Positions 14,362 through 18,560 of a DNA stretch of 64,000 nucleotides are shown here, piece after piece. The position numbers were made by a program, and so were the translations under genes. The notes beneath the pieces were generated by a model, which did not search any database, had not been told where the DNA came from, and saw nothing but the letters and a program-made list of their open reading frames with translations. Numbering within the stretch: the stretch's first letter is position 1; every line of letters starts with the position of its first letter. Source of the DNA: Myxococcota bacterium (GTDB lineage: Bacteria > Myxococcota_A > UBA796 > CAJQPC01); assembly GCA_036229005.1 (NCBI GenBank), contig JAZAMN010000052.1, forward strand, positions 160,001 to 224,000, written 5' to 3'.

Positions 14362-15321
14362 TCACCCTGCCAGCGCCCCCCCACAGCTCGACCCCGCCCC
14401 CGCCGTACACCCCAGACAGTGCCGGGCCACCGCGATGCCCTCCCCCTGGAGTTGGGCCACGTCGTCCAGCTCGAAGAGGGTCCGGGGCCCGTTGGGGAGG
14501 GGCATCTCCAGCATCTGGTTGAAGTCGCAGTCGTAGAGGTTGCCCTGCCAGTCCACGCTGATCAGGTGTCGACACATCAGGCCGGGCAGGGTCGCGGGGT
14601 TGAAGCTGGAGCGCAACAGGTGCAGGTAGTCGTCCAGCTTGCCCTGCCGCTTGAGCTGGCGTTCAAAGCGCGCAATGGGCATGTTGGCCAGGGTCAGCAG
14701 GTCGTTGAAGACCACGCCGTGGTCACGCAGCAGGCGCAGGCTGTAGTCGGCCTGCAGGCCGGCCTGGGAGCCGGGCAGGAAGGCGCCGCCGGGGTTGTAG
14801 ACCAGGTCCAGGGCCAGGCCGCTCCCGGGCTTGCCGTAGCCCAGGCGGTTGAGGGTCCGAAGCCCGTCGATGGAGCGCTCGAAGACGCCCTTGCCGCGCT
14901 GCTTGTCGACGTTGTCCTGGGTGTAGCAGGGCAGGCTCGCCACGATCTGGACGCCATTGTCGGCCAGGAACTGTGCGAGGTCCTCCTGGCCCGGCTCCGA
15001 GAGGATGGTCAGGTTGCAGCGGTCGGTGACCTTGCGGTCCAGTGACCTCGCCGAGACGACGAGTCGCCGAAAGTGGGGGTTGAGCTCGGGAGCCCCGCCG
15101 GTGAGGTCCAGGTGCTCCAGCGCCGGGTTCTGCTCCAGCACCTCAATCACCCGGTCGATGGTGCGCGCGTCCATCATCTCGGTGCGCGCAGGCGAGGCGT
15201 CCACGTGGCAGTGGGTGCAGGCCTGGTTGCACTTGCGGCCCAGGTTGACCTGAAGCCAGGAGGGCAGCGCGCGGGTCAGCGGAGGCAGGCCGTTGGCAGT
15301 GAGGGTGGCTGAGAAAGACAT
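14362..15321 (-). CDS. arsS: Arsenosugar-biosynthesis-type radical SAM protein (ArsS family)
   Basis: LQVNLGRKCNQACTHCHVDASP, DLTGGAPE, DRCNLTIL, YDCDFNQML, C-terminal HCLGCTAGAGSSCGG. Confidence 0.85.
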   Translation of the reverse strand: MSFSATLTANGLPPLTRALPSWLQVNLGRKCNQACTHCHVDASPARTEMMDARTIDRVIEVLEQNPALEHLDLTGGAPELNPHFRRLVVSARSLDRKVTDRCNLTILSEPGQEDLAQFLADNGVQIVASLPCYTQDNVDKQRGKGVFERSIDGLRTLNRLGYGKPGSGLALDLVYNPGGAFLPGSQAGLQADYSLRLLRDHGVVFNDLLTLANMPIARFERQLKRQGKLDDYLHLLRSSFNPATLPGLMCRHLISVDWQGNLYDCDFNQMLEMPLPNGPRTLFELDDVAQLQGEGIAVARHCLGCTAGAGSSCGGALAG

Positions 15322-15389
15322 CCAAGGCTCCAAAGGGGCGAGGATGCCACGGAGGGGGGCGGGTTGCGGGGGGAGGCGCGGCTGGGCGC

Positions 15390-16005
15390 TGCGCGGCCGG
15401 GGTCAGGGGCCGGGGCTCAGGAGTCAGGTATCAGGTATCAGGACGGCTCGGGAGGGCTCGGCGACAGGCGACAGGCGACAGGCGACAGGCATGACGGAGA
15501 GCCAGGTGCAGGCGGTGAGGCTCTGACCGGCAGCGCATCACGCGGGGGCGGCTTCAGCGCCGGCGCTGGGCGGCCGGGGTCAGGGGCCGGGGCTCAGGAG
15601 TCAGGATCGGGTCTCAGGAGTCAGGTATCAGGTATCGGGCATCACGCCGGGGCAGGGTCCAGCGCCGACTCTGGCCCGGGCTGGCAGCACTTGCCGCCAC
15701 CTCCGGCGCCTCCCCTGCCCCAGAGTAGGCTGCCACCCCCAAACCTCACCTTCCACCTACGTCATCGCCGGTTGCCGGTCGCCGGTCGCCAGTCGCCGCC
15801 CAACACCTGACCTCCGATACCTGATACCTGATACCCACCCCGCACCAACGTCGGCTGCCACGCCCAAACCACCCCTTCCTCCTGCGTCATCGCCGGTCGC
15901 CAGTCGCCGCCCGACACCTGACCTCCGATACCTGATACCCGATACCCACCCGCCCCCAACGTAGGCTGCCACCCCCAAACCGACCCTTCCTCCTACGTCA
16001 TCGCC
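15390..16005. repeat. Composite heptamer-built intergenic repeat cluster
   Basis: 36-nt direct repeats at 15393 and 15570; (GGCGACA)4 at 15460-15487; TCAGGTA runs; three units starting GT(A/C)GGCTGCCAC at 15725, 15850, 15961 that contain GGTCGCC and GATACCT heptamers. Confidence 0.9.
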
Positions 16006-16034
16006 TATGACTGTTTTTGGTGGTTTTCCACCTG

Positions 16035-16210
16035 CACGCACAGCACCCCATCACCTACAAGTCGCCCGCCCCGTTGAGGGCTAGGACCGGACCCGGGATG
16101 GGGTGCTGCTGTGGGCAAGAGGGCCTTAGTGATGCCTTGTCCCACGACCGATGTTGACAACGGACCTGTCGGAGAACTTCATAGGCGCGCCCCACATGCC
16201 CACAGCAGCG
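16035..16210 (+). ncRNA. Predicted IS110 bridge RNA (target-binding loop followed by donor-binding loop)
   Basis: Stem 16041-16052/16097-16108 encloses AGTCGCC and GGACCGG (reverse complement of the right flank CCGGTCC). Stem 16109-16117/16197-16205 encloses TAGTGATG (= right end 17500-17507) and TCATAGG (reverse complement of left end CCTATGA). Exact RNA ends are unknown. Confidence 0.8.
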
Positions 16211-16231
16211 TGCTCCAACACAGGAGCATTC

Positions 16232-17479
16232 GTGATCTATCTGGGAATCGACTGGAGCAAGTCAGAAATCGTCGTCGCAGTCAGCCAGGGGGGCGCTAAG
16301 CCCCGGCATCTGGGCAGCTTCGACCGCAGCCGAAAGGGGGTTGAGGGGCTCGTCAGGCGCCTTCGAAAGCAGGGCGCGTGTGGAGCTGATGCCATCGTCG
16401 GCGTGATCGAAGCGGGGGCGCCAGGGTGGCAGGCGCTGCTGCATGACGCGGGCATCGAGCTCCACGTCGCAGACCCCAAGCAGGCCAAGTCCTTCGCGGC
16501 CTCGCTGGGCTCCTCGGGTGCAAAGGACGACCGCCGAGACGCCGCTGCCCTGTGCCTGATGGCCCAGAGTCCGGTGCATCGTGGGGAGCGCTGGACGCCG
16601 CACGCCGGCGTGCACGCGCAGCTGGTGGTGCTGTCCAAGGGGCACCAGACCCTCAGTGAAGAGAGCACACGCGCGCGCCAGCGCCTCCGCGCCCTCCTCC
16701 GAGAGGAGAACACGGCGGTGGAGGCGCTGATCCGAAGCCTCGACGTCCACTGGTGTCACGCGCTGCTCCAGGCCTACCCCACCGCCTGGCACCTGGCGGC
16801 AGCCACCCCGGAAGCGCTCGATGCAGTCCTGGGTGGGACGCGCTGCCCAATGGACAAGCGCGCGGCGCTTGTCCAGGTCCTCGCCGATGCCCGCAGGTCG
16901 TCCTGGCAGTCCGAGGGACTGGCCCAGGTGCAGGGGTTGGTCATCCAGCAGTTGCTCACCCAGGTCTCCCTCCTCAAGGCCCAGCTCAAGGTCCTCGACG
17001 ACCGGATCGACGCCTGCCTGCAGCAGCTCACTGAGGCACAGCACATCATGCAGATCAATGGCATCGGCCGGCAGCTGACAGCGCGGATCCTGCGCTTTCT
17101 GGGGCCTCTCGAGGGCTCTGGGCAACGGGACCACGCGTCCATCGCGCTGGGCGTTGCGCCGGTGTTCCAGGGCTCGGGGACGGACCGGATGGGTCGGCCC
17201 AAAGGGCAGGTGCGAATGCGGAAGTCAGTCGACCCGCACGCGCGCGCCACGGGCTATCTGCTGGGGCGCCTGGCGACGCAGAACCTGGACTGGGCGCGGG
17301 CCAAGTACGCGGACGCGCTGGCGCGCGGCAAGAACTCAGCGACCGCGTACCGCATCGTCGCCCGCAGCATGCTGCGCATCATCACGGCAATCCAGAAGAC
17401 AGGGCAGCCCTACGACCACGACCGCTACGTGCGGCGCTTGAAGGCCAACGGCGTGCCGTGGGCGATGGGCCTTGGGTGA
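16232..17479 (+). CDS. IS110-family DEDD transposase/recombinase
   Basis: GTG start after AGGAG; YLGIDWSK, VIEAG, AKDDRRDA (DEDD); INGIG; GVAPVFQGSG (catalytic Ser region); A.A...VAR. Confidence 0.92.
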   Translation: MIYLGIDWSKSEIVVAVSQGGAKPRHLGSFDRSRKGVEGLVRRLRKQGACGADAIVGVIEAGAPGWQALLHDAGIELHVADPKQAKSFAASLGSSGAKDDRRDAAALCLMAQSPVHRGERWTPHAGVHAQLVVLSKGHQTLSEESTRARQRLRALLREENTAVEALIRSLDVHWCHALLQAYPTAWHLAAATPEALDAVLGGTRCPMDKRAALVQVLADARRSSWQSEGLAQVQGLVIQQLLTQVSLLKAQLKVLDDRIDACLQQLTEAQHIMQINGIGRQLTARILRFLGPLEGSGQRDHASIALGVAPVFQGSGTDRMGRPKGQVRMRKSVDPHARATGYLLGRLATQNLDWARAKYADALARGKNSATAYRIVARSMLRIITAIQKTGQPYDHDRYVRRLKANGVPWAMGLG

Positions 17480-17510
17480 GATTTGGGTGGACGAAACGGT
17501 AGTGATGTCC

Positions 17511-17600
17511 GGTCCGGTCCCCAGTCGCCGGTCTCCGGTCGCCGCTCCCCTGCAGGGCCCCACCGATACCCGATACCCGACACCCGACACCCGATACCCG
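17511..17600. repeat. Continuation of the heptamer repeat unit to the right of the IS110
   Basis: CCAGTCGCCGGTCTCCGGTCGCC, then GATACCC/GACACCC x5. Confidence 0.85.
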
Positions 17601-17690
17601 GGCTGCCCGACCTGAACAGCCGGTCACACACTTGTTGGGTCCGGTCCCCCGCCGAGTCGGTTAGGGCCGGAGACCCAAAGCGAGGAACGA

Positions 17691-18560
17691 ATGAACTTCC
17701 AGGACCTGATCCTGGCCCTGCAGCGCTACTGGGGCGCCCAGGGCTGCGCAGTTCTCCAGCCCCTGGACGTCGAAGTCGGCGCCGGCACCTTCCACCCGGC
17801 CACCTTCCTGCGAAGCCTCGGCCCCAAGCCCTGGCGCTGCGTCTACGTTCAGCCCTGCCGCCGTCCCGGTGATGCGCGCTACGGCGAGAACCCCAACCGG
17901 CTCGGCCACTACTACCAGCTCCAGGTGCTGATCAAGCCCAGCCCCGAGAACATCCAGGAGCTCTACCTGGGCTCGCTGGAGGCCATCGGCATCGACCTGT
18001 CCAAGCACGACGTGCGCTTCGTCCACGACGACTGGGAGAGCCCCACCCTGGGCGCCTGGGGTCTGGGCTGGGAGGTCTGGCTGGATGGCATGGAGGTCAC
18101 CCAGTACACCTACTTCCAGCAGTGCGGCGGCCACGATCTCGGCCCCATCAGCGTCGAGCTGACCTACGGCCTGGAGCGCCTGGCCATGTACCTGCAGAAG
18201 GTGGACAACATCTTCGATCTCACCTGGGTCGACGGCATCTCCTACCGGGACGTCTACCTGGAGAACGAGAAGCAGCAGTCGGCCTACAACTTCGAGCACA
18301 GCACGGTCGAGGCGTTGCTGGCGAACTTCGACTTCGCCCAGTCCGAGTGCAAGCAGCTCGCCGAGAAGGGCCTGGCTCTGCCGGCCTACGACTACGCCTG
18401 CAAGGCCTCGCACCTCTTCAACCTGCTGGACGCCCGCGGCGCCATCTCCGTCGCCGAGCGCGCCCAGTACATCAAGCGCATCCGGGATCTGGCCTGCGCG
18501 TGCGCAGACGCCTACGTCGAGACCGAGTCCGGCACCACCCCCGCGCAGCAGGAGGCCTGA
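17691..18560 (+). CDS. glyQ: Glycine--tRNA ligase alpha subunit
   Basis: [58 protein letters not shown]. Confidence 0.98.

Follow-up and report, generated by a model that had tools for sequence, protein, structure and literature searches.

Elements of the IS110 group are recognised by a long non-coding left end (LE) and a short right end (RE) (PMC11208160). In IS621 of Escherichia coli (IS110 group; PDB 8wt6), taken here as the texts of PMC11208160 and PMC11208158 describe it, such ends enclose the gene of a two-domain DEDD/Ser recombinase and are bordered by a 2-nt core, without target-site duplication. Its bridge RNA runs from a 5′ stem-loop (PMC11208158) through a target-binding loop (TBL; stem, left target guide (LTG), hairpin, right target guide (RTG) and a 2-nt handshake guide (HSG)) to a donor-binding loop (DBL; stem, left donor guide (LDG), hairpin, right donor guide (RDG) and HSG), with LTG and LDG in the sense of the top strand and RTG and RDG as its complement. 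The same traits, as far as the RNA is concerned in predicted form, recur in an element on a 64,000-nt stretch of Myxococcota DNA (contig JAZAMN010000052.1; hereafter the window, whose coordinates are used throughout). We consider it very likely that this element is an intact IS110-group insertion sequence (IS) whose 226-nt LE is predicted to give a bridge RNA, by which the recombinase would be guided in joining the element, as a circle, to CATCG-CC-GGTCC. The letters of the window had earlier led to the proposal of an IS110-family element having a CC core and a bridge RNA laid out as in IS621 (the original prediction), and sequence comparison with homologues supported this proposal.

The element was located at positions 16006–17508, with a CC core on either side, and is composed of the 226-nt LE, the gene of a 415-amino-acid (aa) DEDD/Ser recombinase (16232–17479) and a 29-nt RE. 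Because both junctions have CC alone in common, the element measures 1503 bp, with a 2-nt core and no duplication. Elsewhere in the host genome (6.4 Mb, 70% G+C, 74 contigs) three further left ends (contigs C13, C45 and C66) and three further right ends (contigs C7, C16 and C57) were found, all of them at contig ends; the copy number is at least four, with all copies at one repeated site and one copy complete. The breakpoints were identical to the base in 4/4 left junctions (...(C/T)CATCG-CC directly followed by TATGACTG) and in 4/4 right junctions (...GGTAGTGATGT directly followed by CC-GGTCC; the RE end is also written TAGTGATGT), so that the termini first read from the window are indeed those of the other genomic copies, and the ends of these at least four copies were 97–98% identical over ~140–155 nt. 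The empty-site form is CATCG-CC-GGTCC, with 13 empty CATCGCCGGTCC sites genome-wide. In metagenome assemblies of two studies the element formed a unitig of its own at exactly 15999–17515, corresponding to the element plus the 7 bases per side common to all insertions, and metagenome assemblies of several studies contained it at an identity of at least 99%. As a minor difference, the other genomic copies, like several metagenome contigs, lack one T of the T-run at 16014; none of the variants observed among genomic copies and metagenome contigs fell in a guide segment.

The open reading frame (ORF) of the recombinase is intact, with a full set of catalytic residues, and its GTG start at 16232 is preceded by a Shine-Dalgarno sequence, AGGAG, at 16222–26. 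The recombinase call of the original prediction was borne out by both IS110 domains, as Pfam PF01548 (DEDD_Tnp_IS110) matched residues 4–158 with an E-value of 2.1e-17 and PF02371 (Transposase_20) barely passed its cut-off (22.2 bits vs 21.3; E 1.9e-4). NCBIfam NF033542, in which the family is already named ‘IS110 family RNA-guided transposase’, passed its cut-off of 140 bits with a score of 145.4 (E 2.2e-42). A profile built from the clade covered both domains of the transposases of IS621 (8wt6; E 2.3e-24) and ISCro4 (9t56; E 3.9e-20), of which the window protein is a remote relative detected by profile only. Residues D7/E60/D100/D103/S315 fell opposite D11/E60/D102/D105/S241 of IS621 (a chain-numbering offset of 2 being allowed for), the catalytic roles of which are those given in the text of PMC11208158, and in an alignment of 27 sequences E60, D100, D103 and S315 were invariant and D7 nearly so. 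Specifically, profile residues 245–395 aligned to IS621 172–322, with the invariant GS315G opposite S241-G242, and for about 75 profile positions (169–244) between the two matched domains the IS621 alignment offered no equivalent. A search of 5.8 billion clustered proteins gave 85 matches at E ≤ 1e-3, of which 26 were 39–47% identical, all metagenomic and mostly on IS-length contigs, and the remainder at most 28% identical.

Relatives for comparison came from a metagenome scan with the clade alignment, which gave eight loci having a left end (L019–L026) and one without (L032), and from 401 genomes of the phylum that were searched by profile; 10 of them matched at E ≤ 1e-40, and three of these held clade members with both flanks (L100, L101 and L102). 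No relative was found at E ≤ 1e-10 in the 21 other genomes of the family, nor among viral contigs searched with the clade alignment. A scan of genome contigs with the single protein was rejected, as it returned only relatives of 25–32% identity, useless for covariation. The comparison set comprised 12 elements including that of the window, seven of which have their right end on the contig and measure 1493–1783 bp. None of the tables includes L032, a partial coding sequence that lacks a left end; a further element, L106, is flanked on its left by the remnant of a right end and was for that reason not used in the guide-flank tests.

Folding of 16006–16231 alone yielded a minimum free energy of –95.4 kcal/mol (z = –3.1; 0/200 shuffles as good), and both stems of the original prediction (stem 1, 16041–52 / 16097–108; stem 2, 16109–17 / 16197–205) were present in this single-sequence fold. 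RNAalifold, applied to the alignment of the 12 sequences, revealed five helices (basal, stem 1, target-loop hairpin, stem 2 and an invariant inner GGGC/GCCC helix within stem 2), with 90.9% of the cells paired and compensatory change in 22 of the 33 pairs; 0/500 shuffles reached any of five measures, and slid controls were 34–49% paired. A covariance model of homologous left ends, proposed earlier as a check, was built from the same alignment. It recovered its training sequences at 104–179 bits, found the held-out 13th element L106 at 151.6 bits, and in the window’s own genome matched the complete copy only. Weak matches of 23–40 bits were obtained at six distant IS110 loci (L056, L067, L077, L103, L110 and L062), in each case on the coding strand and just upstream of the recombinase gene, which suggests that the RNA architecture extends beyond the clade. 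A 3-nt deletion at 16157, within the long donor-loop hairpin, was seen in one metagenome contig of ~99% identity.

All strings of the original prediction were present at their positions, including CAAGTCGCC (16058–66), GGACCGG (16084–90) with CCGGTCC (17509–15), TAGTGATG (16127–34 and 17500–07), TCATAGG (16179–85) and CCTATGA (16004–10). The claim that all four guides can be read from them needed correction in the register of the LDG, in which only the first core base is included. Guide registers were fixed by the homologues: the LTG comprises the 9 nt ahead of a 0–1-nt spacer and the target-loop hairpin, the RTG has 5 nt ahead of a conserved GG, replaced by GA in the case of a TC core, the LDG starts one base after GGGCC, and the RDG ends in ATAGG. 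An alternative LTG at 16047–55 (CCCATCACC, 7/8 to the flank) was rejected, as it lies in stem 1 and the homologues put the LTG directly before the inner hairpin. The core-aligned LDG register implied in the original prediction was likewise given up, as the left-aligned register gives 8–10 contiguous matches in 7/7 elements with an RE. In the alignment from its 5′ end, the LDG with TAGTGATG-C-C-U faces TAGTGATG-T-C-C of the donor and covers the left donor and one core base, with 8 matches, a mismatch beside the core, the first core base matched and the second core base unpaired. The IS621 LDG also reaches the first core base only, pairing over 8 nt rather than 9 according to the text of PMC11208158, and left donor position 7 of IS621 is described in PMC11208160 as tolerant of mismatch. 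Covarying LDG variants among the elements were TAGTAATGT, TAGTGACG, TAGTCACGT, TAGCGATGT and TGGCGATGT.

To assess chance occurrence of the guides, the 226-nt left end was shuffled 20000 times with its dinucleotides preserved. Of these shuffles, 3.6% contained the RTG 7-mer, 0.19% the LDG 8-mer and 0.36% the RDG 7-mer, and 0/20000 contained all three; the 5-nt LTG match occurred in 14.8% and is therefore not significant by itself. Each guide was moreover scored against the DNA of its own element and that of every other element, with 20000 permutations. The LTG matched its own left flank in a mean of 4.58 of 7 non-core nt vs 2.47 with other loci (0/20000; n=12), reaching at least 5/7 positions in 8/12 elements. 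The RTG matched its own right flank in a mean of 4.57 of 5 non-core nt vs 1.29 with others (5/20000, about the floor for seven elements; n=7), its weak case being L100 (3/5, in a C-run with an ambiguous junction), and the LDG matched its own RE in a mean of 8.71 of 9 nt vs 6.95 (10/20000; n=7). Co-changes of the RDG were present in three variants (L024 with TATAA, L025 with TATGAG and L023 with core TC), consistent with pairing. Covariation of the loop segments with flanks and ends, on which the original prediction depended, was in this way seen across the 12 homologous elements.

According to the text of PMC11208158, both the RTG and the RDG of IS621 are followed on their 3′ side by two bases that pair with non-cognate positions 6–7 once strands have been exchanged. 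At the corresponding place in the target loop, a conserved AC dinucleotide is the complement of the GT that precedes the core in the RE, as seen in 6/7 elements with a right end. The donor-loop dinucleotide formed 19/24 Watson-Crick pairs with positions 6–7 of its own target over the 12 elements, vs 0.67/2 with other loci (0/20000), and pairing of the handshake guides with cognate DNA was mostly absent. The conserved GGAC motif finds its explanation here.

Circles of IS110 elements reconstitute a promoter across the core, as the text of PMC11208160 reports, and IS621 has a promoter split across the RE-LE junction, to which a candidate in the window would correspond. In the seven complete elements, a predicted TATGAC-type –10 sits 17–18 nt from a –35 element in the RE. 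The RE-LE joint reads TTGACA-17 nt-TATGAN in L025, L100 and L102, TTGACA with an 18-nt spacing in L101 and TTGACT with 17 nt in L023, next to a weak TTGCTG with 17 nt in L024 (read by eye) and TGGACG-17-TATGAC in the window (4/6 for both the –35 and the –10). No sigma-70-like site was detected in the integrated element by a simple scan of 15850–17650. We infer from this comparison that the RE-LE junction might act as a promoter.

By analogy with IS621, the element would excise as a circle, in which the RE-LE junction would create a promoter (–35 in the RE, TATGAC as –10) driving both bridge RNA and recombinase. This circle would serve as the donor (...TAGTGATGT-CC-TATGA...) and be joined to the chromosomal site CATCG-CC-GGTCC, with LDG (16127–36) and RDG (16179–85) of the donor loop predicted to pair on the RE-LE junction. 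After top-strand exchange, AC at 16091–92 and CG at 16186–87 would pair with positions 6–7 of the non-cognate partner. S315, together with D7/E60/D100/D103, would cut beside the core, and the Holliday junction would be resolved without target-site duplication.

A number of results weigh against this interpretation. The window LTG pairs with just 3/7 non-core target bases and, as already visible in the original prediction, matches the left flank in TCG plus core only, which is the same in all four copies; poor LTG matches were also found in L021 (3/7), L100 (3/7) and L023 (2/7), the last being the only one of the 12 elements with a weaker LTG than the window. The ideal LTG site AAGTCGCCGGTCC is absent from the genome, and two sites that the LTG would fit better (AGTCGCCGGTCC) carry no insertion. 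The RDG did not score significantly in the permutation test (own 5.00/6 vs others 4.83; 1524/20000; n=12) because the left terminus is nearly invariant. Since the 12 elements are related, the permutation counts overstate independence, although the flanks themselves are unrelated sequences. A search of 15500–18000 against Rfam 15 (E up to 1) revealed a chance miRNA match only, which says little, as Rfam may hold no bridge RNA family. At the junction, the –35 of the window matches 4/6 positions, and TATGAC as a –10 does not end in the customary T. Among the 20 sequencing runs from 10 studies that carry the element there was no RNA run, and one metatranscriptome (X24) yielded 0 contigs. None of the contigs of eight runs joins 17508 back to 16006, as a circle or tandem junction would, but contigs drop rare forms, so this is not evidence of absence; the joints reported in those run contigs lie in flanking repeats. 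Finally, the three other genomic copies are known only as contig-end fragments. Bridge RNA expression, the circular intermediate and programmability remain predictions.

The target site lies where two units of a 111-bp tandem intergenic repeat meet; the preceding unit junction (CATCG-CC-GGTCG) is empty. Empty CATCGCCGGTCN sites genome-wide numbered 7 with A, 13 with C, 18 with G and 6 with T, and the occupied CATCGCCGGTCN sites carried C in 4/4 cases, which is the base read by the RTG. All four insertions lie within one repeat family, and 31 other TCGCCGGTCC sites are present in the genome. Such a distribution, next to an LTG that pairs poorly in all four insertions, might indicate that target choice is mostly not by RNA-DNA pairing, but for instance by protein or structure recognition of the 111-bp repeat, with the bridge RNA giving the right half-site and core only. 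A 2026 preprint on ISPpu10 reportedly proposes a match of sequence plus structure for an IS110 element targeting one intergenic repeat, and another preprint is reported to describe half-match recombination. However, the LTG follows its own left flank across the 12 elements, the DBL handshake guide also reads target positions 6–7, and a repeat-family preference drawn from four insertions is weak ((17/48)^4 ~0.016 by our own arithmetic). We regard this alternative as rather unlikely.

Less likely still would be that the element is a recently immobilised relic, with genuine bridge RNA features in a copy that no longer transposes. Its junction –35 is degraded to TGGACG, compared with TTGACA in relatives, its LTG fits the used sites poorly, and no circle junction turned up among the contigs of the eight runs; rare circles, however, cannot show up in contigs. 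Moreover, the intact frame with complete catalytic residues, the at least four copies with nearly identical ends and the recurrence of the element at 99% identity or more in metagenome assemblies of several studies all speak against it. That the LE structure is a mere 5′ leader controlling recombinase translation, with flank and end matches arising by chance or as terminal-repeat remnants, appears highly improbable. The hairpin covering the Shine-Dalgarno sequence in most relatives and the non-significant 5-nt LTG match would fit it, but the three long guide matches never occurred together in the shuffles, and from genome to genome the guides change along with flanking DNA that is itself unrelated, which leader function cannot explain.

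Set against IS621, the bridge RNA element described here differs in its core (CC instead of CT), its recombinase (415 aa vs a 328-residue chain), its RTG (7 nt vs 4 nt in wild-type IS621) and its RDG (7 contiguous nt, whereas that of IS621 is discontiguous). A covarying basal helix (16034–38 / 16209–13) is predicted to close both loop modules here, with a short inter-module linker of ~0–6 nt, whereas the IS621 text describes a linker between nucleotides 98 and 110 and names no basal helix. The target, an intergenic 111-bp tandem repeat, also differs, and the LTG is poorly matched. ISCro4 (IS622) of Citrobacter rodentium (PDB 9t56), which is 88% identical to IS621 according to the text of a 2025 preprint (10.1101/2025.05.14.653916), has the family and the bridge RNA layout with handshake guides in common with the window element, in which that layout is predicted. 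The IS1111 group shares the DEDD recombinase and RNA-guided site choice (predicted here), but, as described in the text of PMC11208160, its members have a short LE, carry the RNA in a long RE and possess subterminal inverted repeats of 7–17 bp. In the window, by contrast, the LE has 226 nt, the RE 29 nt and the RNA would lie in the LE, which sets the element apart from IS1111; subterminal repeats were not systematically searched for. Together with two hairpin-interrupted loops in the predicted fold and the lack of a target-site duplication, these end lengths agree with the IS110 group.

With all its copies in one conserved intergenic repeat, the window element resembles IS110 elements that target repeated extragenic (REP) sequences, among them ISPpu10. 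The repeat used here is a tandem unit of 111 bp in which the sub-repeats GGTCGCC and GATACC occur. IS elements targeting REP sequences were reportedly treated by Tobes and Pareja in 2006.

Table 1. Coordinates of the element, its predicted bridge RNA features and its target, as positions of the window.
Feature	Position	Strand	Basis or remark
Tandem intergenic repeat of 111 bp, two copies	15779..16005	+	Tandem Repeats Finder: period 111, 2.0 copies, 91% matches
Left target (LT) bases CATCG	15999..16003	+	common to all four insertions
Core dinucleotide CC, left copy	16004..16005	+	CATCG-CC-TATGAC vs right junction GATGT-CC-GGTCC
TATGAC, right donor bases and predicted –10 of the circle-junction promoter	16006..16011	+	TATGAN or TATAAC in 12/12 elements
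LE, 226 nt, non-coding, predicted bridge RNA gene	16006..16231	+	fold, alignment, covariance model
5′ stem-loop GGTGG-TTTT-CCACC	16019..16032	+	single-sequence fold
Basal helix, 5′ arm GCACG (pairs with 16209–16213)	16034..16038	+	RNAalifold helix 1: two-sided changes in 4/5 pairs; 93% of cells paired
Target-binding loop module	16041..16108	+	stem 1 arms 16041–52 / 16097–108; helix 2, compensatory change in 9/9 consensus pairs
LTG CAAGTCG-CC	16058..16066	+	TCG-CC alone matches observed target; position from homologues
Target-loop inner hairpin GCCC-CGTTGA-GGGC	16068..16081	+	helix 3; one pair C-G/A-U 6:6 across 12 sequences
RTG GGACC-GG	16084..16090	+	reverse complement of CC-GGTCC
Target-loop HSG AC	16091..16092	+	complementary to donor positions 6–7 (GT, 17507–08)
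Donor-binding loop module	16109..16205	+	stem 2 arms 16109–17 / 16197–205; inner helix GGGC 16121–24 / GCCC 16189–92; helices 4 and 5
LDG TAGTGATG-C-C	16127..16136	+	equals RE bases TAGTGATG; mismatch at base 5′ of core; first core base matched
Donor-loop inner hairpin	16137..16178	+	~17 nt longer than in relatives: insertion vs other 11 sequences
RDG TCATA-GG	16179..16185	+	reverse complement of CC-TATGA
Donor-loop HSG CG	16186..16187	+	complementary to target positions 6–7 (CG, 16002–03)
Basal helix, 3′ arm CGTGC	16209..16213	+	RNAalifold helix 1
Hairpin GUGCUCC / GGAGCAU over Shine-Dalgarno AGGAG (16222–26)	16210..16229	+	folds of 3′ tails, 12 elements
Recombinase gene, GTG start, 415 aa, DEDD RuvC-like and Tnp domains	16232..17479	+	Pfam, NCBIfam, clade profile
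RE, 29 nt	17480..17508	+	–35-like TGGACG 17488–93; left donor bases TAGTGATGT 17500–08
Core dinucleotide CC, right copy	17509..17510	+	junction comparison
Right target (RT) bases GGTCC	17511..17515	+	common to all four insertions

At the 3′ end of the LE, the CUCC/GGAG hairpin over the Shine-Dalgarno sequence recurs in most of the 12 relatives. Its 5′ arm is overlapped by the 3′ arm of the basal helix (CGUGC), so that the two folds look mutually exclusive, and we infer that the hairpin may have a regulatory role. A more speculative scenario, to which we give only a small chance, is a clade variant in which the basal helix would bring both loops together in a three-way junction and would compete, through its 3′ arm, with the hairpin that hides the ribosome-binding site of the recombinase. 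Folding of the bridge RNA in full would thus switch on translation, and a half-matched left guide would work naturally. If true, guide and enzyme would be coupled within the element itself.

As RNA-programmed tools for rearranging genomes, bridge recombinases currently attract interest. Bridge RNAs were predicted in 85.7% of the IS110 elements in ISfinder, according to the text of Durrant 2024 (PMC11208160). According to the 2025 preprint cited above (10.1101/2025.05.14.653916), 72 orthologues were screened, only 18 showed any activity in human cells, and only the IS621/IS622 lineage works well so far. Judged by its sequence, the window element is an apparently new, divergent member of the kind described in 2024; together with its 12 relatives it represents a distant lineage, with at most 28% identity to other IS110 proteins in the databases. 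Beyond the original prediction, the present comparison added two IS621-like handshake dinucleotides, a predicted circle-junction promoter and a covarying basal helix. Since the sequence itself reveals all six guide segments together with ends, core and natural targets, the lineage is testable without more boundary mapping, and it offers data on natural specificity, namely a CC or TC core, a 7-nt RTG, conserved handshake dinucleotides and the toleration of four unpaired left-target positions.

In biological terms, this is an unexceptional insertion sequence that has colonised an intergenic repeat in a genome of 70% G+C, which marine metagenome assemblies also contain. The intergenic DNA at 15395–15950 and 17514–17600 contains 7-nt sub-repeats (GGCGACA, TCGCCGG and GATACCT/CCGATAC) inside the 111-bp tandem unit, and the same repeat family flanks the other element copies and was found on many contigs. 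Judged from their translations alone, the neighbouring ORF at 14362–15333 (–) has a radical-SAM-type look, with a CxxxCxxC motif near its N-terminus, and that at 17691–18560 (+) resembles the alpha subunit of glycine-tRNA ligase.

Some of the relatives revealed further rearrangements. In L106 (genome G124, oriented ~1100–1900), a right-end remnant (TTGACA...TAGTGACGT) directly abuts the left end, with a single base at the core position, and the left end is followed by an N-terminal recombinase fragment that is broken after about residue 155; this looks like a fossil RE-LE junction fixed in the chromosome. In L026 (~1170–2110), the element is cut after recombinase residue 170 and ~50 nt of its upstream flank recurs downstream in inverted orientation, as though it had lain within the terminal inverted repeat of a second element, with an inversion or deletion later on. 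At the junctions of L101, L022 and L023, the two core copies differ within one element (CC at the left and TC at the right in L101; TC at the left and GC at the right in L023). In L101, the LTG fits the left core copy and the RTG the right one, which is the trace that would be left by a core mismatch between donor and target being resolved after strand exchange.

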